A stretch of 64,000 nucleotides of DNA from an uncultured Candidatus Bathyarchaeia archaeon (GCA_964559475.1 CAZLHX010000001.1:49-64048), one strand, 5' to 3'. Counted from the first letter of the stretch, positions 18,030 through 42,899 are shown. The notes: a model not told the origin generated them from the sequence alone. Program-made: numbers and translations.

Positions 18030-18038
18030 AGATCCTCA

Positions 18039-21420: not shown

Positions 21421-22043
21421 ACCTTCAACAGGCCCTCAATCTTATCTACAACTCTCATCTCGGGAGAATCCTCACCTGAAATTCTCTTAATCAGTCTTAT
21501 AGATTCCCAAATTTTTTCCTCTAATAGATCAGCCGTATCATACTTACCCTGTTCCTTATATGCTTTAACTCTAGTAGCATGGATCACAGCCTCAATGGCT
21601 TCCGATGTGCCTCTACTGAATACTCTTGGGTAACTGTGATATATCTTGATATCCTTCACTATATTGATAAAAGAAAAACGATCATCAGATAACTCAGAGC
21701 TTTCAAATTTCTCTAAGGATAAACTAGCCTCAGAATCCTTCAGATCGTGATCCACAAATTTAAAATCATAATTAAATTCATCTTTGAAAGCAGCAACCAG
21801 AAAAATATAGGGATCATTAATAATGTTAACGTATGAGACGTCACTACGTTGAAGGTTCTTATAAGTTCTTGATGACTTAAAGGGTTTGATCTCCATCAAA
21901 GAACCCCTAATCCATGATAATCCCATAGGCGCTGGATTAAGGGATTCATCCTCGTTTTTTGTTACCAGTATGGTTTCCACTATGCAATTCTCCCTAAATC
22001 CTAGGTCAATTATTGTATCGATTATTTGATTTTTCAAAGCCAT
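21402..22043 (-). CDS. DUF447 family protein (FMN-binding split-barrel-like), linked to the H4MPT cluster
   Basis: 213 aa. ETILVTKNEDESLNPAPMG is the characteristic DUF447 N-terminal motif. It overlaps the beta-RFAP synthase start by 19 nt. Confidence 0.6.
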   Translation of the reverse strand: MALKNQIIDTIIDLGFRENCIVETILVTKNEDESLNPAPMGLSWIRGSLMEIKPFKSSRTYKNLQRSDVSYVNIINDPYIFLVAAFKDEFNYDFKFVDHDLKDSEASLSLEKFESSELSDDRFSFINIVKDIKIYHSYPRVFSRGTSEAIEAVIHATRVKAYKEQGKYDTADLLEEKIWESIRLIKRISGEDSPEMRVVDKIEGLLKVWSGEH

Positions 22044-22087: not shown

Positions 22088-23077
22088 CTATTCATCCAAT
22101 AGACGTACAGGAAGAAGATAATCACCCTTTCTTCCCAAAACTAAACGATAGGCTATTTTATTTCCTTCCCAGACTTTCTCCAAAGTTCCTCGAGCTTCAA
22201 TAAGCTCCCCTTTTTTGACTTGCTCAGTAAATTTTCCTCTGTAACTTAATAATTCAATGGGCTCATTATCAGAGGAAATCTCCAGCATATATTTGCAGGG
22301 GGTAAATATTCCTTCACTATCATCTTTTATGGTTTTTCTAATTTTTACAACTTCAATAGGTTCACTCTTATCTGGAATATTTATGGGTTTTATTAGACGA
22401 ATAAAGTAGTCTTTATCCTCTACCCTACCGTGAAGTACTTTGTTTGTCTCAATTTCTAAGAAAAGTTTCAGATCCAGACCAGTATTAGACCATCTAGATT
22501 CTAGAACATTTTTTACCGTCTTTTTAGTATATGGTTTTAACCAATTTGAATCTAATCTAAGTTTCTTTAATGCATCATATACTCTTTTACTTTGTTCAAA
22601 CCCATACACGTTGATGTCTATATCGGAGTCTGGAGTATGCATGTCTATCAATATTGATCCTGTGATTCCAAAGCATTCTAGAGGAACCTCGCTTTCCTCG
22701 TTTAATGCATAAACAATTTTTCTTAAAATCTTGATTGGTTTTTGGTTGGAAGTATCAATTATTTCTTTTAACTTTTCTCTGGGCTTGTATATCTTCTTGA
22801 TATTGCTTATGGGAACTGATTGTGTGGTAATTCCAAGTCTTGGTATATAGGATAGGTAATGAGGATAATTTTTTTCAAGAAATCTTTTGGTTTTAACTAG
22901 GTTGTATACCCGTTTATACCTAGAAGTATTCTTGACTCTATCACCCCCTTTGTCTGGAATGTATCTAAGGACGGATAGAACTTTATCTTCTGGATGAAAC
23001 ATTCCTTTTACAGTGAAATATAATCCCTCAGAGGTTTCGATATAGTCTCCTTCTTGAAAATGGTTCGGGTCAGACAA
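22088..23077 (-). CDS. Pol-beta superfamily nucleotidyltransferase-like protein, paralog 1 (N-terminal domain, NTase core, beta-rich C-terminal domain)
   Basis: 329 aa. The intact NTase signature is GITGSILIDMHTPDSDIDINVYG. It is a clear paralog of 32566..33591, with shared DYIETSEGLYF/DFIETKEGLLF and KKIYKPREKL/KQYYKPKERL. Confidence 0.6.
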   Translation of the reverse strand: MSDPNHFQEGDYIETSEGLYFTVKGMFHPEDKVLSVLRYIPDKGGDRVKNTSRYKRVYNLVKTKRFLEKNYPHYLSYIPRLGITTQSVPISNIKKIYKPREKLKEIIDTSNQKPIKILRKIVYALNEESEVPLECFGITGSILIDMHTPDSDIDINVYGFEQSKRVYDALKKLRLDSNWLKPYTKKTVKNVLESRWSNTGLDLKLFLEIETNKVLHGRVEDKDYFIRLIKPINIPDKSEPIEVVKIRKTIKDDSEGIFTPCKYMLEISSDNEPIELLSYRGKFTEQVKKGELIEARGTLEKVWEGNKIAYRLVLGRKGDYLLPVRLLDE

Positions 23078-23153: not shown

Positions 23154-24089
23154 ATGCTGGCAATAGAGGCTGGAGATTATGTAAGTAGATGTCATAGTTT
23201 GGCATCATTACTAGAGGTATCAGCTTATCCTAAACCGGGGAACGTGCATCGAACCAGAGATTCTGAAGATACATTTTTTGAGCATTTCCTCGCAGGAAGT
23301 ATAGCTACAACCCCAGCGATCAGAGACCTTGCAACAAGAGCATACAAAGTAAATGATAGTCATTATGGTGAAATTTTCCTAGGAGAGGCTATTCTCAGAT
23401 CAGTACAAGAAATGATGAAATGGCAAAATGGGGGGAATGTACATCTTGGGATTATTCTACTTCATGCGCCCATAGCAGCAGCTGCGGGAGCCATATATAA
23501 GAAAAAGGGAGTTGAAACAGAACTTCGAAATAAAATAGGTGAAATAATTAGATATTCTCAACCTGAGGACTCGGTAAAGATCTATCAAGCTATAAGACTT
23601 GCAATGACAGCGAGAGTTCTTGGTACCATGCAGGAGATGGACGTCACAGACGTCTCTACAAATGAAAAGATAATTGAAGATAATATAGCTCCTCTAGAGG
23701 TATTTGAACTATGCTCGGAAAGAGATGATATTTGTAGTGAGTGGGTATCCAATTTTGAAATCACTTTTACAGAAGGATATTCTTACCTTTCTAATCTTTT
23801 AAATGATGGATTAAAAATAAATGAGGCGGTTATCAAGACTTTTCTATATATATTATCCAAGCATTCCGATTCTCTTATTATTAGGAAAAGTGGGGAAAAA
23901 GAAGCAAAAAGAATTTCGAGGAAAGCGGAAAAATTGTTGAAAATTTCGGATAAAGGAGAATTTCTTACTGAAATTTGGAAGATGGACGAGGAACTATGGA
24001 GAAGCAAGGGTAAATTAAATCCTGGTACTACTGCTGATCTAGTCTCAGCTGCGATCTTTGTCCTTCTTTTAAGGGGATGGAGACCCTGA
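23154..24089 (+). CDS. CitG/MdcB-like triphosphoribosyl-dephospho-CoA synthase family protein
   Basis: 311 aa. AYPKPGNVHR lies near the N-terminus and NPGTTADL near the C-terminus. Both are CitG-family hallmarks. Confidence 0.75.
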   Translation: MLAIEAGDYVSRCHSLASLLEVSAYPKPGNVHRTRDSEDTFFEHFLAGSIATTPAIRDLATRAYKVNDSHYGEIFLGEAILRSVQEMMKWQNGGNVHLGIILLHAPIAAAAGAIYKKKGVETELRNKIGEIIRYSQPEDSVKIYQAIRLAMTARVLGTMQEMDVTDVSTNEKIIEDNIAPLEVFELCSERDDICSEWVSNFEITFTEGYSYLSNLLNDGLKINEAVIKTFLYILSKHSDSLIIRKSGEKEAKRISRKAEKLLKISDKGEFLTEIWKMDEELWRSKGKLNPGTTADLVSAAIFVLLLRGWRP

Positions 24090-24578
24090 GCCAAAAATCT
24101 CTTCTATCAACTCACTACATTTACTCTGTTTAGTAGCTTGAACATATCTTAGATAATGAGGATACATACTCATCCACTCTTTCACACCTTTATCGGTGAT
24201 ATAGCCTTTGAGTTTCCCATTTTCGGTAACTGCTAGGCTATTGATATCGAATTTTGTCATGATGTCGAATGCTTCCTCGATTGTGTTCCCCATATTAATA
24301 GTTATCACCGGGGTGCAAATCAGATTCTCTACTTTAATCTTATCCCTGGGTAAGTCTGATTCTGCTAGCCATTTTAATACATCAAACATATTGAAACATC
24401 CAACAGGTTCACCGTCTTCCAGGGCAACGATATCTCCGTGATAGTTTTCCTGTACAGTTGTAATGACTTCTACTAAGTTCTGAGTAATTTCAGCGGTTGG
24501 AACAGTTTTATCCATAAGTACGCGGCATGGAAGCTTGCAGAACTCAGGATCTAACACCCGGTTTACCATTGAGATCAA
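24069..24578 (-). CDS. CBS-domain pair protein
   Basis: 169 aa with two CBS-like repeats (VALEDGEPVGCFNMFDVL, AVTENGKLKGYITDKGV). It converges on the CitG-like gene and overlaps it by 21 nt. Confidence 0.7.
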   Translation of the reverse strand: MISMVNRVLDPEFCKLPCRVLMDKTVPTAEITQNLVEVITTVQENYHGDIVALEDGEPVGCFNMFDVLKWLAESDLPRDKIKVENLICTPVITINMGNTIEEAFDIMTKFDINSLAVTENGKLKGYITDKGVKEWMSMYPHYLRYVQATKQSKCSELIEEIFGSGSPSP

Positions 24579-24697
24579 TATATAAAATATATATGTGAGT
24601 ATTTTAAGTTTTAAGTTACCCAGTTTCAGTACTTTTAAGTTACGAAAATTTTAATAAAATCTATTAAAAGGAAGATTTAGATATTAACTGATGGAAG

Positions 24698-25210
24698 ATG
24701 AGTTTTGAGAAAAAGATCCTTTACATCGAGAGTAAAGGTAATGAAAAGATAGCAGATTTGATTCTTGAACGTCTAGAGGAACATGATCTAAATACAGTTG
24801 TTATAGGTAGCGGTAAAGGAAAATCAGCATTAACTATCGCAGATGTGCTGAAAGACAGAGCAAAAATACTCAGTATAACAGAGTTCACATACAGTGACTC
24901 CTTAAAAAAAGATATGAAAAAGAAAAATGTAACACCTCTAGAAAAAGTAGACTTACCAATTCAGGACGAGCGGGAGATGAGGGAAACATTGCTGATGTTT
25001 GGCTCAGGGGTAAAAGCCGCACTGGAAGTTGCACGAATAGCGGTGATTCATGGATTGGAGGATGAAAAATTTATCACAGTAGCAGGAGCGGGACCGGGAC
25101 TTGACACAGCTCTCCTAGTAGATATGAATCACCCTGAAAAAGAGATGATAACAGATCCGAAGAAACAAATGCTCATTAAAGAAGTTATTGCCCTTAAAAG
25201 ATATGAGTAG
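24698..25210 (+). CDS. Hypothetical alpha/beta protein, possibly pyruvate-kinase C-terminal-domain-like
   Basis: 170-aa ORF. The resemblance to standalone PK_C-like proteins is only weak. It is a real gene by coding density. Confidence 0.3.
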   Translation: MSFEKKILYIESKGNEKIADLILERLEEHDLNTVVIGSGKGKSALTIADVLKDRAKILSITEFTYSDSLKKDMKKKNVTPLEKVDLPIQDEREMRETLLMFGSGVKAALEVARIAVIHGLEDEKFITVAGAGPGLDTALLVDMNHPEKEMITDPKKQMLIKEVIALKRYE

Positions 25211-25218
25211 GGAATTAA

Positions 25219-25515
25219 ATGTCAGATAAATTAAGTAAAACTATTTCAGACTCCTTAGAGGAGACGAAGGAACGGCACAAAAAGTATCTCAGAGCAATGA
25301 GCAACCCAATTAGAAGAGATATTATTCGCGCAATCAGAGAAGGATCAAACACAATCGACGAACTCGAAAAACAACTAGACACCGACTCAAAAACACTAAG
25401 ATGGCACATAAAGATACTTGAGGACGGTTACTGTCTAGAAATAAAACTGGTCGATGGCATTGAAAACTTTGTAGTAACAGAAGAAGGCGATGTAGTAGAT
25501 TACATTGAAGGTTAA
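25219..25515 (+). CDS. ArsR/SmtB-like winged-helix transcriptional regulator
   Basis: 98 aa. AMSNPIRRDIIRAIREGSNTIDELEKQLDTDSKTLRWHIKILEDG is a typical ArsR HTH. Confidence 0.65.
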   Translation: MSDKLSKTISDSLEETKERHKKYLRAMSNPIRRDIIRAIREGSNTIDELEKQLDTDSKTLRWHIKILEDGYCLEIKLVDGIENFVVTEEGDVVDYIEG

Positions 25516-25571: not shown

Positions 25572-26522
25572 ATGTTAAGTATAAACAAGTTGTCTTATAA
25601 GATAGTTAAGAAATTAATCGATGCCCCTGAATATTACCGAGTTAATGTTGAGGAACTCTCCTCAGGCGCAACAATCATTGATACTGGTCTTGAAGCCCAT
25701 GGAGGATATGAGGCCGGATTGATGACTACAAAGATAGCAATGGGAGGAGCAGGAACAGCCACACTAGGTTACCATGAATATGATAAATTGAACCTTCCCA
25801 CAGTTGTAATATCCACCGACCACCCAGCAGTATCACTATTTGGAGCTCAGTTAGCAGGATGGAGAATAAAAGCTGGTGATTACCGAGCTGATGGATCGGG
25901 TCCCGCTAGAGCCTTGGCCTTGAAACCCAAAGAAGTGTATGAGAAAATCCAGTATCAAGATGAAGCGGATGTAGCAGTAATCTTACTGGAAACTGAGGAG
26001 AAACCACCAGACGAGGCTGCCTATTATATAGCAGATAGGTGTGGAGTCGAACCCAATAATGTCTACATGGTTCTTACAAACACAACATCCCTTGCAGGGA
26101 TGGTACAGATCTCAGGACGTATAGTGGAGACGGGTTTGTTCAGGTTAGATGTTCTAGGATTAGATCTTAAGAAGGTAAAGTATGGTGCAGGTTATGCGCC
26201 TGTTATGCCTGTTCATGTAGACTCAGGTAAAGCTATGGGTCGTGCTGAAGATGCTTTAACTTACGGAGGAGTAACCAGCTATATCATAGATGAATCAGAG
26301 TATAAACTGGAGGAAATAGCAAATAAAGCACCCTCAACAAACTGTGTAGATTATGGGAAGACGAGTTACGAGATATATAAAGCTGTAGACTTTGATTTTA
26401 CGAAAATTGATCCAGCCCTATTCGCTCCCGCTGCAATTTCAATAACGTGCTCTGAAACTGGAAAAACTTTCACTCGTGGAGAGGTAAATACAGAGATAAT
26501 CAAAAACTCAGCAAAGGAGTAA
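25572..26522 (+). CDS. mch: Methenyl-tetrahydromethanopterin cyclohydrolase
   Basis: 316 aa. The sequence is collinear with Mch (GATIIDTGLEAHGG, HPAVSLFGAQLAGW, DGSGPARALA). Confidence 0.9.
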   Translation: MLSINKLSYKIVKKLIDAPEYYRVNVEELSSGATIIDTGLEAHGGYEAGLMTTKIAMGGAGTATLGYHEYDKLNLPTVVISTDHPAVSLFGAQLAGWRIKAGDYRADGSGPARALALKPKEVYEKIQYQDEADVAVILLETEEKPPDEAAYYIADRCGVEPNNVYMVLTNTTSLAGMVQISGRIVETGLFRLDVLGLDLKKVKYGAGYAPVMPVHVDSGKAMGRAEDALTYGGVTSYIIDESEYKLEEIANKAPSTNCVDYGKTSYEIYKAVDFDFTKIDPALFAPAAISITCSETGKTFTRGEVNTEIIKNSAKE

Positions 26523-26536
26523 ACGGAGGATAATCT

Positions 26537-26932
26537 GTGAAAAAAATTGATGTAACATTAATTTCAGGAAGAACAACACAGCAAGGCGTAGGTCTTGAAG
26601 AGGGAAAAACATCTGAAGCGTATACAAAAAGTGTAGATTATATTGAATTGAACTCATCTGATGCTGAAAAACTTGGTTTAAAAGAAGAATACCTGGTCAA
26701 AGTATCGAATGAAAACGGCTCAGTAGTCCTAAAATGGAAAAAAACAGATGGACTAGACTCTGGGATAGCGTTTATCCCCTACGGTCCTTGGGCTAACCAG
26801 TTATTCGGTTACGAGACTGAGAGCACCGGTATGCCCTGGTTCAAAGGAATACCAGCGCTAATTGAAGGAGAATCCAAAGAAAATATGCTCACTCTACAAG
26901 AAATTGTAGAATCTTTCAGGAGTGGAAAATAG
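26537..26932 (+). CDS. fwdD: Formylmethanofuran dehydrogenase subunit D
   Basis: 131 aa with a molybdopterin-dinucleotide-binding beta-barrel (LISGRTTQQG...). GTG start. The stop overlaps the fwdB start (taGTG). Confidence 0.85.
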   Translation: MKKIDVTLISGRTTQQGVGLEEGKTSEAYTKSVDYIELNSSDAEKLGLKEEYLVKVSNENGSVVLKWKKTDGLDSGIAFIPYGPWANQLFGYETESTGMPWFKGIPALIEGESKENMLTLQEIVESFRSGK

Positions 26933-28209
26933 TGCAAATAGTAACAGATATTGTATGTCCTTTTTGTGGATGCCTTTGTGATGATCTTGAGGCTACAATA
27001 GAAAACAACCATATCTCTAAGATAAAGAACGCTTGTGCAATTTCACGTTCTAAATTCTTAAATCATAGTAAAAACAGGCTGAATTCACCGACAATCGATG
27101 GTGAAAAAGTCTCACTAGAAAAAGCGCTGGATGCAGCTGCTGATATATTATCCACGTCTAGACGTCCCTTGATATATGGTCTGAGTTCTACTGAGTGTGA
27201 AGCCATAGGGAAAGCCGTAGAAATCTCAGAATTAACAGGAGGAGTTATAGATAATACTTCTTCGGTTTGCCACGGTCCAACAATTTTAGCTCTACAACAG
27301 GTAGGCGAATCAAAGACTACTCTTGGGGAAGTCAAAAATCGGAGCGATCTTATTATCTTCTGGGGTAGCAACCCAACTCAAGCTCATCTACGTCATTTGC
27401 TTAGATATTCAGGTATTTCTAAGGGTCTCTATACCTCAGAGGGAAGAAAAAAACGCTTCATTATAGCTGTTGATATACGAGAAACTGCTACCGCAAAGAT
27501 GGCTGACCAGTTCATAAAGATCAAACCTAACAAAGACTTTGAATTATTACAGGCTCTCTCAGCAGCAGTGAGAGGATATGAAGTTCCTGATGTAGCAGGG
27601 GTAAGCAAAGATGAAATTATGGAACTAGCCGATAGAATGAAAAATGCAAAAGTTGGGATAGTTTTCTTCGGACTTGGTCTAACCCAAAGCAAGGGTAGAC
27701 ACATGAATATTGATGCAGCTGTTATGTTGGTTGCAGAGCTAAACCATCACACAAAGTTTCTGTTAACCCCCATGAGAGGTCATTATAACGTTGCGGGTGC
27801 AAACACAGTTACCACATGGCAGACGGGTTATCCGTATGCCGTGGATTTCAGTAGAGGATACCCGAGATACAATCCAGGAGAGTATACCTCGATAGATCTA
27901 TTGGCTAAGGGTGAAGTAGATGCTGCTTTAATAATAGCATCTGATCCAGTCTCAACTTTCCCAGCAAACGTAGTAAGGGAATTAGTCAAGATCCCAGTTA
28001 TTACATTGGATCATAAGATTTCCCCCACCACCATGTTAAGTAAAGTTGCTTTACCAGTAGCCACTGCGGGAATAGAAGGCGAAGGAACAGCTTACAGGAT
28101 GGATGGAGTCCCATTAAGATTGAGTAAATTATTGGAACCGGAAGAGGGAGTAAAAACTGATGCAGAGCTTCTTGATATGATCATTGAGAGAATTGGAGGA
28201 AAAAGATAA
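26932..28209 (+). CDS. fwdB: Formylmethanofuran dehydrogenase subunit B (Cys-type active site)
   Basis: 425 aa. The N-terminal cluster motif is CPFCGCLCDD. The active-site motif is SSVCHGP, with TGC at 27268-27270. Confidence 0.9.
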   Translation: MQIVTDIVCPFCGCLCDDLEATIENNHISKIKNACAISRSKFLNHSKNRLNSPTIDGEKVSLEKALDAAADILSTSRRPLIYGLSSTECEAIGKAVEISELTGGVIDNTSSVCHGPTILALQQVGESKTTLGEVKNRSDLIIFWGSNPTQAHLRHLLRYSGISKGLYTSEGRKKRFIIAVDIRETATAKMADQFIKIKPNKDFELLQALSAAVRGYEVPDVAGVSKDEIMELADRMKNAKVGIVFFGLGLTQSKGRHMNIDAAVMLVAELNHHTKFLLTPMRGHYNVAGANTVTTWQTGYPYAVDFSRGYPRYNPGEYTSIDLLAKGEVDAALIIASDPVSTFPANVVRELVKIPVITLDHKISPTTMLSKVALPVATAGIEGEGTAYRMDGVPLRLSKLLEPEEGVKTDAELLDMIIERIGGKR

Positions 28210-29915
28210 TGTCAGATATTATAATCAAAGGGGGAGTGGTCTTCGATCCCTTAAATAATGTAAACGGAGAGTTAAAAGAAATTTACATAAAAGAGGGAAA
28301 AGTAGCAGAGGAATTTCCAGAAAATAAGGCGAAGGTCATCGACGCTAAAGGTATGACGGTTATGCCTGGAGGAGTAGATCTCCATAGCCACATAGCGGGT
28401 AGTAAGATTAACATCGGGAGATTGATGAGACCCGAAGACCACCGAAAGGACCCTGTTCCAAGAAGCATAAATACAAGATCCGGGGTCGGATACAGCTGTC
28501 CCTCCACATTCGTAACCGGCTACAGGTATGCTCAAATGGGTTACACCACCGTGATGGAGGCAGCAATGCCGCCCCTAGGAGCGAGACATGTACATGAGGA
28601 ATTAAATGATACACCAATTATTGATAAGGCAGCCTTTACCCTGTTTGGGAACAATTACTTCGTATTAAAATACATTAAAGAAGGAGACAAAGATAAACTC
28701 AAAGCATTCATCGCCTGGCTTCTCCGAGCCACCCGCGGCTATGCAGTGAAAATTGTAAACCCTGGAGGGGTAGAACACTGGAAATGGGGACGGAACGTCG
28801 AGGGATTAGATACACCCATAGAGAACTATGAGATAACCCCTAGAGAAGTAATAACAAGTTTAGCTGAATCAAACGAAGAGCTAGGGCTGCCTCACACAAT
28901 ACATCTACACTGTAATAATCTGGGTGTACCTGGCAATTATGAAACAACCATTGAGACAATTGACACAGTGAAAGGTATAAAACCGAAAAAAGGTCGTGAG
29001 GCCAGTGTTCATATTGTCCACTGCCAGTTCAACGCCTTAGATGGAGAAAACTGGATGAATCTCAAATCTGGAGCATCGAAAATTTCAAAATACGTGAACG
29101 GAAAATCCCATGTTACGCTGGATCTGGGTCAGGTTATTTTCACAGACACAACCACAATGACTGGAGATGGACCTTGGCAGTTCAGATTATGGGAACTTAC
29201 AGGAAATAAATGGGTAAACAGCGACGTCGAAATGGAGGCCGGTGCAGGCGTGGTACCCTATACCTTCAAGAAAAACAATCCAGCGAACGCAATCCAGTGG
29301 GCAATAGGCTTGGAACTCGCTTTACTAATAAAAGATCCATGGAAAGTATACATGACTACAGATCACCCCAATGGTGGACCCTTCTACTATTATCCAAAGG
29401 TTATCTCCTGGCTCATGAGCCGTAAATCAAGAACGGAGACTATGCTTGAATCAAATAAAGCTTGTATAAGAAAAACAACACTAGATGGAAGTTACAGAGA
29501 ATACACATTTAATGATATAGCGATCGTGACGAGAGCAGCCACAGCAAAAGTACTTGGACTTGTAAACAAAGGACATTTAGGAATAGGAGCAGACGGGGAC
29601 GTTAGTATTTACAAGATTAACCCAAAAACATGGAGACCAAGTAAATTTAAGGAGCTTGAGAAGGCTTTCAGTAGCGCAGCTTACACAATTAAAAATGGAG
29701 ACATTGTGGTAAAGGATGGTGAAGTTTATTCAACTTCTCTTGGGTCAACCTTCTGGGCAGACGCGGAGATTCCCGAAGGGCTAGAAAGTGAATTAGTCAA
29801 AGAACTTGAGGAGGATTTCAGCAAGTATTATACCGTGAACTTCAGGAATTACCCTGTGGAGGAGGCTTACTTACCGACTCAGATACCTGTTGAAGCTAAG
29901 GGAGGTAAATGGTGA
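28209..29915 (+). CDS. fwdA: Formylmethanofuran dehydrogenase subunit A (amidohydrolase)
   Basis: 568 aa. GGVDLHSHI is the metal motif. Length and context fit. The start overlaps the fwdB stop (taATG). Confidence 0.9.
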   Translation: MSDIIIKGGVVFDPLNNVNGELKEIYIKEGKVAEEFPENKAKVIDAKGMTVMPGGVDLHSHIAGSKINIGRLMRPEDHRKDPVPRSINTRSGVGYSCPSTFVTGYRYAQMGYTTVMEAAMPPLGARHVHEELNDTPIIDKAAFTLFGNNYFVLKYIKEGDKDKLKAFIAWLLRATRGYAVKIVNPGGVEHWKWGRNVEGLDTPIENYEITPREVITSLAESNEELGLPHTIHLHCNNLGVPGNYETTIETIDTVKGIKPKKGREASVHIVHCQFNALDGENWMNLKSGASKISKYVNGKSHVTLDLGQVIFTDTTTMTGDGPWQFRLWELTGNKWVNSDVEMEAGAGVVPYTFKKNNPANAIQWAIGLELALLIKDPWKVYMTTDHPNGGPFYYYPKVISWLMSRKSRTETMLESNKACIRKTTLDGSYREYTFNDIAIVTRAATAKVLGLVNKGHLGIGADGDVSIYKINPKTWRPSKFKELEKAFSSAAYTIKNGDIVVKDGEVYSTSLGSTFWADAEIPEGLESELVKELEEDFSKYYTVNFRNYPVEEAYLPTQIPVEAKGGKW

Positions 29916-30844
29916 TGAGCTTCAAGTATAATGGAGTTAATATTGAAGATACCTTCGCCGAAGGTTTCAGCATGTGGGGAAGCAGAATAATTATCACAGC
30001 TACAAATAGAAAATGGGCGAATACAGCAGCAAACAACATGTGTGGCTTCGCTACAAGCGTCATCGCCTGTGATTGTGAGGCAGGAATAGAAAGAGAGCTT
30101 ACTCCAGAAGAAACACCAGATGGAAGACCGGGGACAGCGGTTATGGTGTTTGGGTTCAGTAGAAGCAAATTATCAGAGCCAATGCTAAACCGTATAGGCC
30201 AATGTGTGCTAACCTGCCCAACAACAGCAATCTATAATGGATTATCAGAGGAAAAAGCCGATGAAATGTTAGATGTAGGAAAAAGTGTACGTTTCTTTGG
30301 TGATGGTTATCAGGTAAAAATGAGGCTGGGAGATGGATATGGGAAACGGCAGAGGTATTGGAGAATACCCGTGATGGAAGGAGAGTTCATGATCGAGGAT
30401 AAATTCGGTGCCAAAAAAGCCGTTGCAGGAGGAAACTTCCTCATAATGGGTGAATCAGAAAAAGCTACATTAGAAGCATCCGAAAAAGCCATAGAGGCAA
30501 TAGATAAAGTTCCTATGGTTATAACCCCCTTCCCCGGTGGTTTATGCAGGAGCGGCAGCAAAGTAGGTTCAAGGTATAGTTTCCTGAGAGCTTCCACCAA
30601 CACCCCCTTTTGTCCTGCTATCAAGAATAGTTATCCAAATAGCAAGATACCTGACGGAGTAAATTCTGTTATTGAGATAGTAATAAACGGGCTTGATGAA
30701 CCCTCGGTGATGAATGCAATGGGTGAGGGAATTAAAGCAGCAACAAGCGTCAAAGGGATAAAATGGATTACAGCTGTAAATTTTGATGGAAAACTAGGGA
30801 AATATCAGATGTCTCTAAAGGATAGTCTTGGAGGTGAATGCTAG
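29909..30844 (+). CDS. ftr: Formylmethanofuran:tetrahydromethanopterin formyltransferase
   Basis: 311 aa. NGVNIEDTFAEGF, PEETPDGRPG, RIGQCVLT, FFGDGYQ, IPVMEGEF and EIVINGL all match Ftr. Confidence 0.93.
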   Translation: MVMSFKYNGVNIEDTFAEGFSMWGSRIIITATNRKWANTAANNMCGFATSVIACDCEAGIERELTPEETPDGRPGTAVMVFGFSRSKLSEPMLNRIGQCVLTCPTTAIYNGLSEEKADEMLDVGKSVRFFGDGYQVKMRLGDGYGKRQRYWRIPVMEGEFMIEDKFGAKKAVAGGNFLIMGESEKATLEASEKAIEAIDKVPMVITPFPGGLCRSGSKVGSRYSFLRASTNTPFCPAIKNSYPNSKIPDGVNSVIEIVINGLDEPSVMNAMGEGIKAATSVKGIKWITAVNFDGKLGKYQMSLKDSLGGEC

Positions 30845-31680
30845 TGAAAACCCTAGTCTTTACACCAAAGAGAATAACAAAGATACCCATCGAAGCAGAA
30901 ATAATCTCACCACCAAGAATTAGCGGAAAAAGTCTAGAAGATGTAAAGGAAATACTAGTCTATCAAGGAAACAAGAGACACAGACTCACTGACTTCTTTA
31001 CAATCGAAGGAGAAGTTGCAGAAAATCCAAGCAAAGTACGCATAGTAATAGATGATGACATTCCTCACGTCAAATACGTTGGAGCTGAAATGAATACAGG
31101 AGAGATACTAATCCGAGGTGACGCGGGAATGCATACAGGGTCTCAAATGGCTGGTGGAAAGATCACAATACAAGGTAATGTTTCTGATTGGGCAGGGGCA
31201 GAGATGAGCGGGGGGTTACTAAAAATCGAAGGAAACGCGGGTCACCAACTTGGTTCAGCTTACAGAGGAAGCAGTGAGGGTATGACGGGCGGAGTTATAA
31301 TAGTTGACGGAAAAGCTGGTTCAGAGGCAGCTGGATTCATGAGAAGAGGCATGTTGGTAATCGGAGAAGATACGGGACCATTTACTGGAGTACATATGAA
31401 TGGAGGAGAAATATTCGTTTTCGGAAAGACAGGGATAAGAGCAGGTGCACAAGCAAGAGGAAACGGGGGGTTCATAGCCTGTCTAGGAGGTATAGAGGAG
31501 GTTCTACCAACCTATAGATATGATACCACCTATAGCCCAGTCATGATGAAGCTATATCTAAAGGAGATGGCTGAAAAACTAGGAATCAAGAAAGCTTCCA
31601 AATTCAAGGATACCCGGTTTATACGATACAGGGGGGACCTCGCAGTAGGAGGCAACTCTGAGATCTTAGTTGCTAAGTGA
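30838..31680 (+). CDS. fwdC: Formylmethanofuran dehydrogenase subunit C
   Basis: 280 aa with tandem G-rich beta-helix repeats (GDAGMHTGSQMAGGKITIQGN, AGAEMSGGLLKIEGNAG). Confidence 0.9.
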   Translation: MLVKTLVFTPKRITKIPIEAEIISPPRISGKSLEDVKEILVYQGNKRHRLTDFFTIEGEVAENPSKVRIVIDDDIPHVKYVGAEMNTGEILIRGDAGMHTGSQMAGGKITIQGNVSDWAGAEMSGGLLKIEGNAGHQLGSAYRGSSEGMTGGVIIVDGKAGSEAAGFMRRGMLVIGEDTGPFTGVHMNGGEIFVFGKTGIRAGAQARGNGGFIACLGGIEEVLPTYRYDTTYSPVMMKLYLKEMAEKLGIKKASKFKDTRFIRYRGDLAVGGNSEILVAK

Positions 31681-32569
31681 TAACACTTTGAAATTCGGGA
31701 TACTATCCTCAGATAGGGAAGAATGGCATGTACTAAGGCTATCTAAAGAGCTTAAAAAAAGAGATAACGAGGTCTACATTTTCCCCGTCGCAAGGTTAGT
31801 ATCCAAGATAGCACTTGAGCCAAGCATATCCATACGTGGTTATCCTGTAGAGGATTATGACGCTGTTATAGTAAGACGTGTACCAGGAGGATCGGTAGAA
31901 CAGGTATTCTACAGAATGGATGTCCTTCACGTGTTAGAGGAATACGGGGTGAAGGTATTCAATCCTCCCCTTAGTATCGAAAAATCAGTTAACAAATACT
32001 ACACGTCAGCCCTCCTAGAGAAACATGGACTAAAATCCCCAAAAACCATAGTAGCTGAAAGCTTCAGAGATGCAATGAAAGGCTTCAAAGAGTTAAAAGA
32101 AGATGTAATAGTCAAACCATTATTTGGATCACTGGGCTCCGGGATGATTAGAGTAACTGATCAAGATATCGCGTACAGAGTTTTCAGAGCCCTGGAATCA
32201 ATAAATAGTGTATTTTATCTTCAAGAATATATTCCACATAAAAATACTGATATAAGAATATTTGTTGTTGGAGGAAGCGCAATATCTGCAATGAAAAGAG
32301 AGGGTGAAAGCTGGAAGACGAATATATCCTCTGGAGGTAAACCCATTCCATATGAGCCCTCAGAGGAAGAGACCAGAGTCAGCATTAAAGCAGCTGAAAT
32401 TTTTAATTTGGAATATACTGGAGTTGACCTTCTCCAATCTGAGGATGGAGAACTATACGTATTAGAAGTAAACAGCACACCAGGGTGGGAGGGGCTCCAA
32501 AAAGTGACGGAAAAAAATATCTCGAATGAAATTATCGAGCATATTCTTTCAAAGTTGAAGAAATCTTGA
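31670..32569 (+). CDS. RimK-type ATP-grasp ligase, MptN-like (tetrahydromethanopterin:alpha-L-glutamate ligase) or CofF-like
   Basis: 299 aa. ATP-grasp motifs are VIVKPLFGSLGSGM, YLQEYI and GVDLLQSEDGELYVLEVNSTPGW. The substrate assignment rests on context only. Confidence 0.7.
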   Translation: MLSDNTLKFGILSSDREEWHVLRLSKELKKRDNEVYIFPVARLVSKIALEPSISIRGYPVEDYDAVIVRRVPGGSVEQVFYRMDVLHVLEEYGVKVFNPPLSIEKSVNKYYTSALLEKHGLKSPKTIVAESFRDAMKGFKELKEDVIVKPLFGSLGSGMIRVTDQDIAYRVFRALESINSVFYLQEYIPHKNTDIRIFVVGGSAISAMKREGESWKTNISSGGKPIPYEPSEEETRVSIKAAEIFNLEYTGVDLLQSEDGELYVLEVNSTPGWEGLQKVTEKNISNEIIEHILSKLKKS

Positions 32570-33591
32570 AACCAAAAGATAGGGACTTTATCGAAACAAA
32601 GGAAGGATTACTGTTCTGTGTGGTCGGTTATCTTCACCCACCAGACAGAGTTACAGCTTACTTGAAATATATTCCATCTATAGACGGAAAATGGAGTAGA
32701 GGGGAGATTCATTATAATCGGACTTTACAGTTTTATCACGTAGCACAAGTCGAGAAGACGTATAATTACTTAGAAAAAATTTATCCAGACTATCTTTTCA
32801 AAGACCCTGTTAGAAATATAACCATCTCAGCAGTCCCAAAAAATAAGATTAAGCAATATTACAAACCTAAAGAGAGATTACAAGAAATCCTCGAAAAACC
32901 AAAGGATATCCTGGAAAAAAGGATATGTGAAATTATTAAAAAAATTAAAAAATACGTAAATATTGAGGGAAACATTGGAGTAACAGGATCTGTTCTTACA
33001 TGTTCTCATAACCCAAATTTCTCAGACTTAGATTTTACTGTTTATGGATTGAAAAATGTACTGGATCTCAAAAAATCGATACTTTCACTAAAATCAGAAG
33101 GAGAAATTAGGTTCTTATCTTCTGAAGAGCTTGAGACTTGGTGCCACGAACGTGGCAAGAAATTTCCTTTATCGGTAGCTGAATTAAAAAGAATTGCTTC
33201 TAAAAGATGGAATTTCGGGTACTATAAAGATACTTACATCTCATTTCACGCTACAAGAAATGATGAAGAAATCCAAGAAAAGTACGGTGATAATATTTAC
33301 ACACAGATAGGAGAAGTGAAAGGTACCGGGAGAGTAAATGATATATCTGAATCTATGTTTAATCCTGCTATTTATGAAATAAGAGACTCAGAACTCTTGG
33401 ATACTAATAGGAAGGTATCAGAGATTATTTCATTTGAAAGCTTATATGGAGGTCTATTTGAGGTTGATGAAAAGATTGAATTTAAGGGAAAACTTGAGAA
33501 AGTAGAAGGAAAAAAGAAATATTATCGTGTAGTTCTAGGTGGGTCAGGTTCCACTGATAGTTTTATGAAATGGTTTACTCCTCAGGATTAG
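32566..33591 (+). CDS. Pol-beta superfamily nucleotidyltransferase-like protein, paralog 2
   Basis: 341 aa. The NTase signature is GVTGSVLTCSHNPNFSDLDFTVYG. The TTG start overlaps the TGA of the ATP-grasp gene (cTTGA). The 3' end overlaps cdhE by 17 nt. Confidence 0.6.
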   Translation: MKPKDRDFIETKEGLLFCVVGYLHPPDRVTAYLKYIPSIDGKWSRGEIHYNRTLQFYHVAQVEKTYNYLEKIYPDYLFKDPVRNITISAVPKNKIKQYYKPKERLQEILEKPKDILEKRICEIIKKIKKYVNIEGNIGVTGSVLTCSHNPNFSDLDFTVYGLKNVLDLKKSILSLKSEGEIRFLSSEELETWCHERGKKFPLSVAELKRIASKRWNFGYYKDTYISFHATRNDEEIQEKYGDNIYTQIGEVKGTGRVNDISESMFNPAIYEIRDSELLDTNRKVSEIISFESLYGGLFEVDEKIEFKGKLEKVEGKKKYYRVVLGGSGSTDSFMKWFTPQD

Positions 33592-34990
33592 GCACCCATT
33601 TTTCGTCAAGGTACTTAGATATACCCGAGGAATCCATCGGTCCAACCGATACACTCCAACCTGAAAGCTCTCTGATCTCACCACTTAATCTTGCTGATCT
33701 ACCAGGTATTACTAAATGTCTATGGGATACTTTATCTCCGACTTTGTAGTTCGCCAATGCTTCCGCTACTGTATCGGCAGTCATCTTCCTACCAGCTACA
33801 GCACTCTCAACTGACATTCCCTCGCTGTCTATCACCAAAAGATAGCAGTCTATTTTAGCCGATTCAATGTCTGAAGCAACGGTATAGTAAGTTAATGCAA
33901 AGTTTGTCGTGAGTAAAACAGGCGACATTTCATCCGGTTCACCCATGACCTCCAATCCAGGTTCAACCGAGACAGGCTTTCTTGGATCCGTGTAAATGTT
34001 TGAGCGAAGTATTACTTGGGGTAGTAAAGCCCATCCACTTATACCATGAACCACCAAGGCATCAGTGAATCTGGTTATACATAATGCTGCAAGAGCGGCT
34101 TCATTCCATTCATTTATCAAAGGATCTTCCTCTTCTATTGCCCAGGCAGCCATGGGGGCACTCAATATTGGGTAGCCTAAGTGTTCCTCTTCATCATTTA
34201 TCGACTGCCATCTAAGTACCGTGAAGTTTTCTACGTTTGCTGACTGGTACATGTTAGGTTCAGTACCTGGGTCAAGAATTATATCCTCTATACCGTATTC
34301 TTCCAGTGTATGGGCTATGCTTTTCAGAGTATCTCTATCTTGAGGAGCATATGCTACTAAGGGACAGTTGAACTCAACTGCGAGTTCTGCCATATCACTC
34401 CAATTCGTGGTCGTGGCTCCATGTATTAAGGGACGTTTGTCTCCAACTATTTCTAGTGCTTTCCTCATACCTGCTGGTTCATGATTACAGAGGATCAATG
34501 GTTTTCTGGTTAATTCGCTAGCTCTCTCAACTGCTTTTGAAAAGATTTCAGGATCTTCACTGGTGCTGGTTATTGCTAGCATATCCAAGGTTAATTCCAT
34601 TCCAATGTATTCGTATCTAAAGTCATTTAGTATATTTATTCGTAACTCAAATTCATCGTCACTCATCTCATCACTGACATGGACCGCGATAGCAGGCTCA
34701 TGGAAGTAGGTGAACTCATGTCTATAAAGCACATATTCTCCACCGAGGGTTACTGTATCTTCTCCAGTGCCTACTTCGATGGCTTTGACTGCTGGTTTTA
34801 ATAAATTCCATAAGTCCTCATATTTATCATTATTTTCGGGGGTAAGCAGTGGTTCACATTCATCAAGTAATGCTTCCCTGTTTACTAGTTTAGCGGCGAA
34901 TGCCATGCAGTTTGCTTCTCCGCATTCTTTGCAGTTAGTCCTAGGAAGTTTCTGGTAGATCTCTATGGGGCTTAATTCTTTGGCTGGCAT
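33575..34990 (-). CDS. cdhE: CODH/ACS gamma subunit (corrinoid Fe-S protein large subunit)
   Basis: 471 aa. The N-terminal 4Fe-4S motif is LPRTNCKECGEANCMAFA. Confidence 0.9.
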   Translation of the reverse strand: MPAKELSPIEIYQKLPRTNCKECGEANCMAFAAKLVNREALLDECEPLLTPENNDKYEDLWNLLKPAVKAIEVGTGEDTVTLGGEYVLYRHEFTYFHEPAIAVHVSDEMSDDEFELRINILNDFRYEYIGMELTLDMLAITSTSEDPEIFSKAVERASELTRKPLILCNHEPAGMRKALEIVGDKRPLIHGATTTNWSDMAELAVEFNCPLVAYAPQDRDTLKSIAHTLEEYGIEDIILDPGTEPNMYQSANVENFTVLRWQSINDEEEHLGYPILSAPMAAWAIEEEDPLINEWNEAALAALCITRFTDALVVHGISGWALLPQVILRSNIYTDPRKPVSVEPGLEVMGEPDEMSPVLLTTNFALTYYTVASDIESAKIDCYLLVIDSEGMSVESAVAGRKMTADTVAEALANYKVGDKVSHRHLVIPGRSARLSGEIRELSGWSVSVGPMDSSGISKYLDEKWVPNPEE

Positions 34991-40796: not shown

Positions 40797-41720
40797 ATGA
40801 CTCAAAGACCGGCTTATAGTCAGTTAGTAAAGGATATTCGGAAGGGTAAATTTGTTCTAACAGGTGAACTTGAGCCAGAGAAGGTAACTAGCCTAGAAGA
40901 AATTATTCACAGTGCTAAAGCAATGAAACCTTACGTAGTCGCTGCAAACGTAACAGATAACCCATTAGCATATGCCTACATGAACAGTCTAATACCATCT
41001 TGGAAAGTTCAAGAAGAAGTAGGACTCGAGACAGTCTATCAAGTGACTGTAAGAGACCGTAATCGCCTAGCATTAACTTCTGATATTCTTGCAGCAGCTC
41101 ATCTTGGTATTAAAAATGTTCTCGCGCTTTCTGGAGATCATACAGTACTGGGAGATAACAGACAAGCTAATTCAGTGTACGATATTGATTCGGCTCAGTT
41201 CGTATACTTATTAGGTAAAATGATTGACGAAGGTGAAGATCTCGCAGGCAACGAAATTCATGGAGATGTAAATATTAACGTGGGTATTGCGGCAAACCCT
41301 AACGCCAATCCTTTGATGCCTGAAGTCCTTAAAATTGGTAGGAAGACGAAGATTGGATCAGATTTTATACAAACCCAGACCATGTTCGATATCGATAGGA
41401 CAAAAGAATTTCTGAAAGAAATGGAGAAGTATAAAACACCAGTATTGGTAGGTATATTCCCACTCAAAGGATTCACCATCGCTGACTTTTTTGATAAGTA
41501 TATACCTGGAGTGTCTGTTCCTCAGGAGTTAATGGAGAACATGTATAAAGCCAAACAAGAACCTGACTCTGAGATTCGTAAACAAAAATATGATGAGGTA
41601 AACCTAGAATTCTTCAGGCCATTCATTAAAGAGATACATAAAACAACTCATGCAGCTGGTATACACGTAATGGCTGTATTATATGAAAGAATCTTTGACC
41701 CGTTATTGGAGGCTTTCTAA
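40797..41720 (+). CDS. metF: Methylenetetrahydrofolate reductase-like protein (acetogen-type MetF)
   Basis: 307 aa with a TIM-barrel MTHFR fold (VLTGELEP, VTDNP, LALSGDH, FIQTQ). Confidence 0.85.
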   Translation: MTQRPAYSQLVKDIRKGKFVLTGELEPEKVTSLEEIIHSAKAMKPYVVAANVTDNPLAYAYMNSLIPSWKVQEEVGLETVYQVTVRDRNRLALTSDILAAAHLGIKNVLALSGDHTVLGDNRQANSVYDIDSAQFVYLLGKMIDEGEDLAGNEIHGDVNINVGIAANPNANPLMPEVLKIGRKTKIGSDFIQTQTMFDIDRTKEFLKEMEKYKTPVLVGIFPLKGFTIADFFDKYIPGVSVPQELMENMYKAKQEPDSEIRKQKYDEVNLEFFRPFIKEIHKTTHAAGIHVMAVLYERIFDPLLEAF

Positions 41721-41721
41721 G

Positions 41722-42357
41722 ATGATAATTACTGAGCAAAAACCCTTTGAAAAAGTCTCAGAGATGATTGATCAATACAAAAAGATCTTCATCGTGGGAT
41801 GTGGAACCTGCAGCACCAGTTGTCAGACTGGTGGAGAAGAAGAAGTCAAAGAGATGGCTGAAAAACTAGGAGACAGAGTAAACGGATGGGCCATGGTAGA
41901 GGACCCATGTGACTTAAGGCTTGACCGCAGAGATCTAAGAGACTATAAAAAGGAGATTGCTGAATCTGATGCAGTCTTAGTTATGGCATGTGGTGCAGGC
42001 GTTCAGACTGTAAGTGATTTCACTAAAAAGATAACATTACCGGCTCTAAATACGCTATTCATCGGTCAGACTGAGAGACTTGGAAAATTCCATGATACCT
42101 GTAAGGCTTGTGGAGACTGTATCCTCGATGAAACAGGGGGAGTCTGCCCCATTACCAGGTGCGCTAAAGGTCTGTTGAATGGTCCCTGTGGAGGACAGGT
42201 AGATGGAAAATGCGAGGTAGGGGACTATGAGAACGAGTGCGCGTGGATACAGATCTATGATAGATTGGAAGAACAAGGTAGACTGGATCTTTTCACAACA
42301 TTCAGACCACCAAGAGACTTCTCTAAAAAGACTCTGAAAATGCACCACTATTTCTAA
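41722..42357 (+). CDS. metV: MetV-like Cys-rich MTHFR-associated subunit
   Basis: About 211 aa from the ATG at 41722, 1 nt after the metF stop. Cys clusters are GCGTCSTSC, CKACGDC, CPITRCAKGLLNGPCGG and KCE..x..ECAW. Confidence 0.8.
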   Translation: MIITEQKPFEKVSEMIDQYKKIFIVGCGTCSTSCQTGGEEEVKEMAEKLGDRVNGWAMVEDPCDLRLDRRDLRDYKKEIAESDAVLVMACGAGVQTVSDFTKKITLPALNTLFIGQTERLGKFHDTCKACGDCILDETGGVCPITRCAKGLLNGPCGGQVDGKCEVGDYENECAWIQIYDRLEEQGRLDLFTTFRPPRDFSKKTLKMHHYF

Positions 42358-42899
42358 TCCACTAATATATTTTTTAGAGCTTTTTTTATCTTATCAGGAC
42401 TCTCTAATACAGATATTCCATCCATTTCTTCAAGTTTTCTGACATTCAGCACATCTTCTTTTCTTACTCTCAACCTCAAAGTTTTTCCGTTAGGAAGAAC
42501 TGTTACCGTTTCTCCTTCGCGGAAGTCAGTAGGCATAATATAAACAGGAACATATCCCTTTATGCCTTGTATAATAGCATTTGTAAGAAGAGTATCAGAT
42601 ATTCCAACAGCAATTTTTGCCACTGTATTGCTCGTTGCGGGGGCAATTAAAAGTAAGTCGAACTCCTTCATCTGTAGACGACCGGTTAGAAATGGTGTAT
42701 TTGCATCTTTTTCTATCCAAACCTTATCAAAAGAGGCCCCCAAATCCTCGTAAATTTTGTAGTATTTTGATACAAGGTAACCAGCTTCCGATAAATAAAT
42801 CTCTACAATTAATTGTTTTTCTTGTTTGATGCTCTTTAAAATTTCAACTGTTTCTAGAAGTTTATCTCCTCCGCCAGTTATCCCCCAAGCAATCTTCAT
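42354..42899 (-). CDS. Archaeal flavoprotein AfpA/DmrB-like (PF02441-type flavoprotein)
   Basis: 181 aa with KIAWGITGGGD and LLIAPATSNTVAKIAVGISDTLLTNA. Its stop codon overlaps the metV stop codon on the opposite strand. Confidence 0.7.
   Translation of the reverse strand: MKIAWGITGGGDKLLETVEILKSIKQEKQLIVEIYLSEAGYLVSKYYKIYEDLGASFDKVWIEKDANTPFLTGRLQMKEFDLLLIAPATSNTVAKIAVGISDTLLTNAIIQGIKGYVPVYIMPTDFREGETVTVLPNGKTLRLRVRKEDVLNVRKLEEMDGISVLESPDKIKKALKNILVD

Follow-up and report, generated by a model that had tools for sequence, protein, structure and literature searches.

The window studied here, a stretch of 64,000 nucleotides of DNA from an uncultured Candidatus Bathyarchaeia archaeon (GCA_964559475.1, CAZLHX010000001.1:49-64048), carries two genes, NT_A and NT_B, that are genuine, intact paralogs belonging to an unnamed enzyme family. 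We suggest that they represent two of the four subfamilies of an uncurated three-domain family that acts in the biosynthesis of tetrahydromethanopterin (H4MPT)-type cofactors, and we consider this somewhat more probable than not. The more general statement, that the NT proteins are dedicated enzymes of H4MPT-type cofactor biosynthesis, is very probable. The original prediction, made from the window's sequence, tied each of two paralogs to a different cofactor-tailoring gene. This interpretation was too narrow; the family consists of cofactor-pathway nucleotidyltransferases found in methanopterin clusters across archaea and bacteria. The two genes and their core motifs, located by translation, are as follows.

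32566..33591, plus strand: NT_A, 341 aa, TTG start; subfamily A; last gene of the mch-fwd-ftr-ATP-grasp operon
32977..32991 and 33022..33033, plus strand: core motifs GVTGS and SDLD of NT_A
22088..23077, minus strand: NT_B, 329 aa, TTG start; subfamily B; heads the operon NT_B-DUF447-RFAP synthase-DHPS-like
22655..22669 and 22616..22627, minus strand: core motifs GITGS and SDID of NT_B

Methanogenesis, methylotrophy and the archaeal Wood-Ljungdahl pathway, the last of these in abundant sediment lineages such as Bathyarchaeia, rest on one-carbon (C1) metabolism that depends on H4MPT. We know of no enzymes assigned to the ribosylation and phosphodiester steps of the H4MPT side chain. An inventory from 2011 estimated that methanopterin biosynthesis involves seven unknown proteins (PMC3087415), and among the papers open to our search we found none linking a nucleotidyltransferase to this pathway. 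The NT family provides concrete, clonable candidates for the missing steps: it is unnamed and of novel architecture, it sits in operons across domains of life, and it occurs fused to HPPK.

Two paralogs of a three-domain family

NT_A and NT_B align end to end in BLASTP, with 31% of some 330 residues identical (E 1e-34), which is well above what chance would give. The full-length paralogy claimed in the original prediction is thereby borne out, and so are the motifs on which it was based. On translation the N-terminal motif reads DFIETKEGL in NT_A and DYIETSEGL in NT_B, the second motif YKPKERL and YKPREKL, and the nucleotidyltransferase (NTase) core GVTGS...SDLD and GITGS...SDID.

The boundaries of NT_A also proved to be as described. 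Its TTG start (32566-32568, within cTTGA) overlaps the stop codon TGA (32567-32569) of the upstream ligase gene, giving an overlap of 4 nt. Going upstream from this TTG, no other start occurs before the in-frame stop at 32527. The next in-frame starts within the gene, at codons 19 and 33, would cost the protein its conserved N-terminal motif, and homologs begin at the same MKPKDRDF. At its 3' end NT_A overlaps by 17 nt the convergent gene at 33575..34990, whose identity as cdhE, encoding the gamma subunit of acetyl-CoA decarbonylase/synthase (ACDS), is confirmed by NF003195 (558.8 bits against a cutoff of 306).

Database searches yielded two clean clades around NT_A and NT_B, with 121 sequences each, over both of which G-x-x-G-S, S-D-x-D and about 40 further positions are more than 90% conserved. 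Related loci were collected separately for clades A and B rather than from a mixed A+B alignment, and these loci contain two further subfamilies, C and D, which brings the total to four (A-D). When 1.84 billion representative proteins were searched with a profile, 1735 clusters matched at E <=1e-3 and 568 at E <=1e-30. The family is small, and nearly all of its sequences are of metagenomic origin; it spans Bathyarchaeia, other Thermoproteota, Chloroflexota, Acidobacteriota, Coprothermobacterota and others. Some loci that have the gene order usual in Bathyarchaeia and are about 50% identical to NT_A (L041, L028; protein P0021) come from bins labelled Patescibacteria, Desulfaltia or Krumholzibacteriaceae and are probably mis-binned contigs.

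An AlphaFold model of full-length NT_A, built on 77 homologs, has a predicted local distance difference test score (pLDDT) of 93.6 and a predicted TM-score (pTM) of 0.90. It displays three domains.

32566..32865, plus strand: residues 1-100, N-terminal beta-rich domain, without a Pfam or PDB relative
32893..33270, plus strand: residues 110-235, alpha/beta core of Pol-beta-type nucleotidyltransferases, carrying GVTGS and SDLD
33295..33573, plus strand: residues 244-336, C-terminal OB-like beta barrel, with invariant P267, Y270 and E311

The C-terminus, described earlier as beta-rich, is thus an OB-like barrel in the model. In the N-terminal domain, F17, G21, H24, P25, Y35, P37, R52 and Y76 are invariant family-wide. 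A second AlphaFold model (AF2, residues 1-242, pLDDT 92.9) contains the alpha-beta-alpha-beta-alpha-beta core of Pol-beta-like NTases, with elements H115-128, E137-140, H141-144, E155-160 and H162-177. The h-G-[GS] motif of this superfamily is present as G141-S142, invariant in 242 homologs and in subfamilies A-D, and the [DE]-x-[DE] metal pair as D154-x-D156 in NT_A and D152-x-D154 in NT_B, invariant in all subfamilies. With regard to the third catalytic carboxylate, which lies on a later strand in this superfamily, E235 is invariant just past strand 223-230, in which positions 226 and 228 are acidic in subfamily D only. Both copies keep the catalytic G-S and D-x-D residues that do not vary across the 242 homologs, and neither is catalytically dead.

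What subfamilies A-D have in common (G-S, D-x-D, E235, P267, Y270, E311) is accompanied by residues that are invariant within each subfamily, at positions 140, 192, 215/216, 226, 228 and 291. The pocket of NT_A has T140, W192, W215, N216, S226, H228 and E291, where NT_B has S, L, V, I/L, F, R and R. Shared residues together with a subfamily-specific pocket form the pattern expected of one chemistry with different substrates or partner surfaces.

Sequence similarity to known families is confined to the NTase core. With Pfam NTP_transf_2 (PF01909, gathering threshold 21 bits), NT_B scores 21.9 bits, NT_A 17.1, NT_C 19.9-21.2 and NT_D 13.5-19; Pfam searches with NT_C, NT_D and the isolated N-terminal and OB segments gave no specific family. 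NCBIfam holds no model for the NT_A/NT_B family. Single-sequence searches of PDB returned chance-level matches only, and the family profile matched kanamycin NTase in PDB over no more than the G-S/D-x-D segment. With the full-length model, Foldseek against PDB gave only weak OB-fold matches, to SSB and the anticodon-binding domain of LysRS (best E 7.6e-3). With residues 1-242 the matches were also weak (E >=0.12), the top ones being NTase-fold proteins: poly(A) polymerase (PAP), class I CCA-adding enzymes, OAS1, ANT(2'')-Ia and CD-NTases (CdnE). The N-terminal domain had no match in that search. A search of the viral structure library BFVD gave nothing significant; a LicD protein was among its weak matches. 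In agreement with the original prediction, sequence and profile searches of Pfam, NCBIfam and PDB do not match the paralogs to any characterised family. Sequence and models together point to a Pol-beta-type nucleotidyltransferase whose combination of domains has been neither curated nor solved to date.

Several more familiar identities were considered and rejected. For a defence NTase (CD-NTase and the like), PADLOC gives only 16-19 bit PDC-S09 matches over G-S/D-x-D, and the neighbours are cofactor and C1 genes. For a class I CCA-adding enzyme or poly(A) polymerase, only the NTase head aligns (TMq 0.23-0.28, root-mean-square deviation (rmsd) 9-12 A), and PAP or CCA domains are absent from family members in Pfam. 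A TiaS-like or CCA-like tRNA enzyme was discarded because the domains do not match.

Gene neighbourhoods and the HPPK fusion

The neighbourhood of NT_A was sampled in 80 loci from species-representative genomes, using our own calling of open reading frames and labels from BLAST and hidden Markov models, and that of NT_B in 80 metagenome loci. Neighbour tallies have varying denominators within these sets (e.g. 40, 41, 42; 57, 60, 74). Precomputed Pfam annotation on independent gene calls served as a second check of the NT_B context and agrees with our own labelling.

A CitG-like gene lies divergently upstream of NT_B and adjacent to it in 37/57 metagenome loci, and DUF447 directly downstream in 43/60. 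Within 5 kb of NT_B there is an RFAP synthase gene in 38 of 74 loci and a dihydropteroate-synthase-like (DHPS-like) gene in 26 of the 74. The operon NT_B-DUF447-RFAP synthase-DHPS-like, divergent from the CitG-like gene, is found in Bathyarchaeial contigs. Coprothermobacterota contigs have the order fwdD-B-A-ftr-fwdC-mch-RimK-CitG-NT_B; there, as in Chloroflexota (rimK-citG-NT_B), CitG is directly upstream. Other arrangements are ftr-mch-RimK-CitG ... ATP-grasp_3-Orf17-MfnE-MfnB-NT_B (L087) and, in an Acidobacteriota-type contig, NT_B-AfpA-...-DHPSlike-DUF447-MptG-MtdB.

In at least 17 protein clusters (56-100% identity) a canonical HPPK (FolK, PF01288) carries NT_B at its C-terminal end, and in both HPPK-NT_B contigs examined the fusion is followed by AfpA and the DHPS-like gene. 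Since HPPK makes pterin diphosphate, this Rosetta-stone fusion links the NT family with the making of pterin cofactors in a way that does not depend on operon context. A role for NT_B as an analog of HPPK was rejected, because the HPPK to which it is fused is canonical.

Two loci types with relatives of NT_B or of its partner deserve mention. In one archaeal locus (L086, 8001..10134, plus strand) a subfamily-B-type member of 349 aa stands beside a 356-aa protein without a Pfam match; there are no H4MPT genes within 8 kb, and the neighbours are AFOR, MoeA and a SPASM protein. The association of the NT family with H4MPT genes is therefore not universal. In Coprothermobacterota (L084 and L085, 9052..11944, minus strand) a second CitG is grouped with an NTP_transf_3 protein (MobA/IPCT-like) and myo-inositol-1-phosphate synthase, convergent to the rimK-citG-NT_B block. 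This is a second pairing of CitG with a nucleotidyltransferase, and judging from the genes its product possibly contains inositol phosphate.

For NT_A, the dominant Bathyarchaeial arrangement is fwdDBA-ftr-fwdC-ATP-grasp-NT_A and then convergent cdhE. Of the Bathyarchaeial loci, 21/40 have the ATP-grasp gene directly upstream and 28/42 have it within 6 kb, and 20/41 have cdhE downstream. Among loci of at least 8 kb, genes linked to H4MPT or methanofuran are near NT_A in 29/32 from Bathyarchaeia and 11/12 from Chloroflexota. An alternative order, seen in 12/40 Bathyarchaeial loci, has ATP-grasp, NT_C, a DRG GTPase on the opposite strand, and then NT_A and Kae1/Bud32/Ham1. In Chloroflexota NT_A either comes right after NT_B (mch-rimK-citG-NT_B-NT_A) or has the DHPS-like gene on one side and DUF447/RFAP synthase on the other, as in NT_B-AfpA-DHPSlike-NT_A-DUF447-RFAPs (L064 and L067). 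CitG adjoins NT_A in only a few loci (L073, L079).

Tandem arrays of the paralogs are found in other Thermoproteota: NT_B-NT_C-NT_A-NT_D in a metagenome-assembled genome (MAG) of Thermofilaceae (L077), NT_C-(HAD)-NT_A-NT_D next to genes for a PfkB kinase and an ECF transporter in three further Thermofilaceae loci (L071, L045, L059), and ATP-grasp_3-NT_C-NT_A-NikR-NT_B in L068. V4R proteins and a complete ECF transporter (S, T, ATPase) adjoin NT_C-HAD-NT_A-NT_D in L071 (4500..14674), as also in L045 and L059, and ECF S-components or an SSF symporter flank NT_A in L057, L076, L078, L079 and in Chloroflexota. The Thermofilaceae group of NT, ECF, kinase and phosphatase genes has the look of a module for salvage or re-tailoring. 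In L077, a luciferase-like oxidoreductase of the Mer-family type (4156..5196, plus strand) is encoded upstream of the tandem of four paralogs, two genes away.

The test of neighbourhood conservation that accompanied the original prediction thus gave a positive answer, for NT_B with CitG and DUF447 and for NT_A with the ATP-grasp gene. The idea of one paralog per tailoring gene stands in Bathyarchaeia and fails in Chloroflexota and other Thermoproteota, where A and B (and C and D) form tandems within the same methanopterin set. Likewise, the adjacency of CitG to NT_B was correctly seen, but there are four subfamilies instead of two, and the tightest partners also include DUF447, RFAP synthase, the DHPS-like protein and, by fusion, HPPK.

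In the window the partners of the two genes are these.

25572..31680, plus strand: mch-fwdD-fwdB-fwdA-ftr-fwdC; leads on without a break to the ATP-grasp gene and NT_A
31670..32569, plus strand: RimK-family alpha-L-glutamate ligase (ATP-grasp), MptN/MyfB-like; directly upstream of NT_A
23154..24089, plus strand: CitG-like gene, Orf7-type triphosphoribosyl-transferase homolog; divergent from NT_B across a 76-nt intergenic region
21402..22043, minus strand: DUF447 protein, Orf19-type; directly downstream of NT_B
20443..21420, minus strand: beta-RFAP synthase, MptG family; first committed step of methanopterin biosynthesis
18871..20439, minus strand: DHPS-like protein, Orf20 counterpart (TIGR00284; DUF6513 + Pterin_bind + DUF4346)
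42354..42899, minus strand: AfpA-like flavoprotein (PF02441), whose homologs adjoin NT_B and the DHPS-like gene in bacterial loci

Each of the eight junctions from mch (25572) to NT_A is an overlap or a gap of at most 14 nt; therefore mch-fwdD-fwdB-fwdA-ftr-fwdC-ATP-grasp-NT_A reads as one operon. The "MptN-like" label given earlier to its ATP-grasp ligase is unsafe. The protein reaches 279.8 bits, below the 350-bit cutoff of the MptN equivalog in NCBIfam (NF040720), and passes only the RimK-family subfamily model (221.9 against 143.4). Its gene has the position of Orf5/MyfB, the methylofuran glutamate ligase, in the mch-orf5-orf7 island (PMC3615186, PMC8141765), and because of score and position together we cannot use the MptN label with confidence. 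Its substrate may be the tail of methanopterin or that of methanofuran. The CitG homolog also belongs to a distinct subfamily, with 46.7 bits against a CitG equivalog cutoff of 272.

Most of these partners are familiar from the "archaeal-like" islands of methylotrophs, which comprise mch-orf5-orf7 and orf19-orf20-afpA-orf21-orf22, with mptG in a separate pcbD-mptG island (PMC3615186). There, Orf5 and OrfY are the methylofuran glutamate ligases MyfB and MyfA, and Orf21, Orf22 and Orf9 are homologs of MfnE, MfnB and MfnF (PMC8141765). Mch, Orf5/MyfB, CitG-like Orf7, DUF447 Orf19, DHPS-like Orf20 and AfpA are common to the islands and the NT loci. The islands as described (PMC3615186) lack a nucleotidyltransferase; the NT genes are an addition in other phyla. 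H4MPT and methanofuran genes are widespread in Bathyarchaeota and Chloroflexi (PMC5020050).

A possible reaction and its rivals

A potential role for the NT enzymes can be sketched from citrate lyase. CitG joins ATP to an acceptor hydroxyl, giving an alpha-linked 5''-triphosphoribosyl product with release of adenine; in the CitX reaction a hydroxyl attacks the alpha-phosphate, which yields a phosphodiester and pyrophosphate (PPi). H4MPT has an alpha-ribofuranosyl 5-phosphate on ribitol, esterified to 2-hydroxyglutarate in a phosphodiester. Transferases dependent on phosphoribosyl pyrophosphate (PRPP) normally give beta products, and an inverting CitG-type reaction on ATP gives alpha.

By analogy, the CitG-like enzyme would install a 5-triphospho-alpha-D-ribosyl group from ATP. 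An NT paralog would then catalyze a Mg2+-dependent reaction in which a hydroxyl attacks the alpha-phosphate of the ribose 5'-triphosphate and PPi is released. A side-chain alcohol would serve as acceptor, which in canonical H4MPT is (S)-2-hydroxyglutarate, and the product would be the only phosphodiester of the cofactor. Such a scheme would transfer the CitG/CitX logic of citrate lyase to a small molecule, and it would pair the NT family mechanistically with CitG-like Orf7, which likewise has no assigned role. NT_B is the first candidate for the phosphodiester step because it is adjacent to the CitG-like gene. NT_A, translationally coupled to a RimK-type glutamate ligase, might carry out the next tail step with a different donor or acceptor, or might be a partner subunit of NT_B. 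Phosphodiester-forming alpha-phosphate transfer by at least one paralog is a real possibility, though we would put it at rather less than an even chance. Two distinct phosphodiester or nucleotidyl steps for the two paralogs, as first proposed from the sequence, are plausible; for the alternative raised at the same time, that one copy modifies a C1 enzyme, we found no evidence.

Dephospho-H4MPT is the form made by proteobacterial methylotrophs. It is consistent with the mechanism that the islands described for these organisms include Orf7 and no NTase (PMC3615186), and that Thermofilaceae keep NT genes beside transport and kinase genes and not beside core-assembly genes.

The likeness to CitX and MdcG, the partners of CitG and MdcB, would be one of function: a PPi-releasing transferase (as proposed for NT_B) beside a CitG-family gene, and identical chemistry, in which a phosphodiester is formed from a 5-triphospho-alpha-ribosyl compound. 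There is no kinship in sequence. Neither CitX (PF03802) nor MdcG is matched in Pfam, and homology to CitX was rejected after an hhalign comparison of the family profile with E. coli CitX gave a probability of 0.1%; we have kept the functional analogy alone. In addition, the acceptor of CitX and MdcG is a protein serine, while that of an NT enzyme would be a small hydroxy acid, and the NT family has three domains, including a novel N-domain and an OB barrel. With KNTase, ANT(2'')-Ia and MNT (PF01909) the family has in common G-S, D-x-D and the alpha/beta core. Those enzymes lack the flanking domains of the NT type, NT proteins score at or below the gathering threshold, and the former are resistance or toxin-antitoxin modules whereas NT genes are found in cofactor operons. 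CofC/CofD (F420) and CobY/CobS (cobamide) would offer another parallel, a side-chain phosphodiester made via a nucleotidyl- or pyrophosphate-activated intermediate, but their folds are unrelated (MobA-like, CofD-like) and no homology to the NT family was detected in Pfam and NCBIfam. LicD and fukutin are NTase-fold enzymes that make phosphodiesters to alcohols from CDP-alcohol donors; they resemble the NT family in fold and would do so in type of product, with no significant similarity measured.

A number of observations weigh against the proposed role. The parallel to CitX is functional only, and the mechanism presumes the structure of the C1 carrier in these organisms. In Acidobacteriota-type loci NT_B is accompanied by HPPK, AfpA, the DHPS-like gene, DUF447 and MptG with no CitG within 10 kb, and such loci fit a step in core assembly equally well. 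No H4MPT gene lies within 8 kb of NT_A in 5/7 loci from other Thermoproteota and in 3/4 labelled Theionarchaea, Rokubacteria or Nitrososphaeria. All named homologs come from a MAG or metagenome, and none of those recovered is from a cultured methanogen; if methanogens do without the NT family, the same bond must be made there by another enzyme. OB folds more often bind nucleic acids. Finally, as canonical H4MPT has one phosphodiester, one step cannot explain two to four intact paralogs. With up to four of them, one must assume a more complex tail in these lineages or else paralogs that assemble into hetero-oligomers, as suggested by their tandem, overlapping genes.

The more complex tail might be one that has not been described, built by two to four paralogs and RimK/ATP-grasp ligases, with more than one phosphodiester or nucleotide-linked unit. 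This would be a new cofactor variant made by CitG/CitX-like logic, an idea that we advance tentatively. If it is true, uncultured groups with the NT family may use a modified C1 carrier, and the ECF transporter, kinase and phosphatase of Thermofilaceae would represent a route of salvage and re-tailoring. Hetero-oligomers (A/B or A/B/C/D) seem to us about as doubtful as this new tail, and they are compatible with either phosphodiester formation or activation chemistry. They would explain why NT_B and NT_A are 2 nt apart or overlap in Chloroflexota and Thermoprotei, the back-to-back order in L077, the NT_C-NT_A and NT_A-NT_D pairs, and the invariant residues of the N-terminal and OB domains that all subfamilies have in common. 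However, A and B belong to different operons, about 9.5 kb apart, both in the window and in the majority of Bathyarchaeia; NT_B is alone in Coprothermobacterota clusters, as is NT_A in Theionarchaea loci; and full catalytic motifs in all four subfamilies would be unusual for purely structural partners.

A serious rival to phosphodiester formation is activation in core assembly. The NT enzymes would adenylylate or nucleotidylate a hydroxyl or phosphate of an early intermediate, making a leaving group by chemistry of the CofC/CobY or aminoglycoside-ANT type. Candidate targets are the phenolic OH of ribofuranosyl-hydroxybenzene phosphate, in White's ATP-dependent phenol-to-aniline route, or a pterin or arylamine intermediate near the HPPK/DHPS-like condensation. 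The HPPK-NT_B fusion, with the DHPS-like gene after it, speaks for such a role. So does the most conserved block, NT_B-DUF447-RFAP synthase-DHPS-like, together with the position of NT_A between the DHPS-like gene and DUF447/RFAP synthase in Chloroflexota, and ANT(2'')-Ia is the best target-normalised and lowest-rmsd match among NTase folds (TMt 0.35, 4.3 A). Yet fusion partners need not act consecutively, and the same operon holds AfpA, a homolog of the last-step reductase. None of the described H4MPT intermediates bears a nucleotide. Methylotroph islands with orf19, orf20 and afpA list no NTase (PMC3615186), which means that the core can apparently be made without one, and in Thermofilaceae NT_C, NT_A and NT_D are beside a transporter, kinase and phosphatase with no core-assembly genes nearby. 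We consider activation rather unlikely.

Two more distant options concern the substrate. The NT enzymes could serve a side chain like that of methanofuran or methylofuran instead of methanopterin, since NT_A ends the formylmethanofuran dehydrogenase operon, after the ligase in the Orf5/MyfB position (PMC8141765, PMC3615186), and NT_B in L087 is beside mfnB, mfnE, an orf17-like gene and ATP-grasp_3. Given that known methanofuran structures have no phosphodiester or nucleotide, that the known pathway needs no NTase, and that both the fusion to HPPK and the operons with RFAP synthase and the DHPS-like gene are specific to pterin, we find this improbable. Still less probable, in our opinion, are NTases that modify RNA, DNA or protein (e.g. 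tRNA, or regulatory AMPylation), in which case the clustering with C1 genes would be regulatory or accidental. It is true that the best structural matches of the C-terminal domain are the OB folds of SSB and the LysRS anticodon-binding domain, that DRG GTPase and Kae1/Bud32/Ham1 flank NT_A in the alternative Bathyarchaeial order, and that Theionarchaea loci have no C1 genes nearby. But the Foldseek matches are all weak (E >=7.6e-3; TM <=0.59 on the small target), the Kae1/Bud32 neighbours are limited to that one arrangement, in which NT_C still follows ATP-grasp, and there is no significant defence match in PADLOC. The H4MPT context, moreover, is conserved in several phyla of the two domains, and the fusion to HPPK concurs.

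Other genes of the window

Convergent to the DHPS-like gene, at 16452..18878 on the plus strand, are genes for two CooC/ParA-like ATPases and a CofE-like protein. The latter matches PF01996 but is far under the cutoff of the CofE equivalog. The order DHPSlike / CofE-like / CooC2 / CooC1 recurs as a syntenic block in about 16-19 metagenome loci of Bathyarchaeia. Located beside pterin genes, this gamma-glutamyl-ligase-like gene could specify another tail-modifying enzyme.

Between the CitG-like gene and mch (24069..25515) lie a CBS-domain protein, a 170-aa protein (24698..25210) without a Pfam match and an ArsR-type regulator. This trio is syntenic in many Bathyarchaeial loci and may regulate the C1 cluster. 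Rfam searches of the window and four related loci revealed no riboswitch or RNA element, just one tRNA.

The region 40797..43534 encodes a MetF-like methylenetetrahydrofolate reductase and a MetV-like protein (DUF5981), followed on the opposite strand by the AfpA-like gene and an FMN reductase (42896..43534). MetF/MetV are also found just upstream of the HPPK-NT_B fusion in one bacterial contig.

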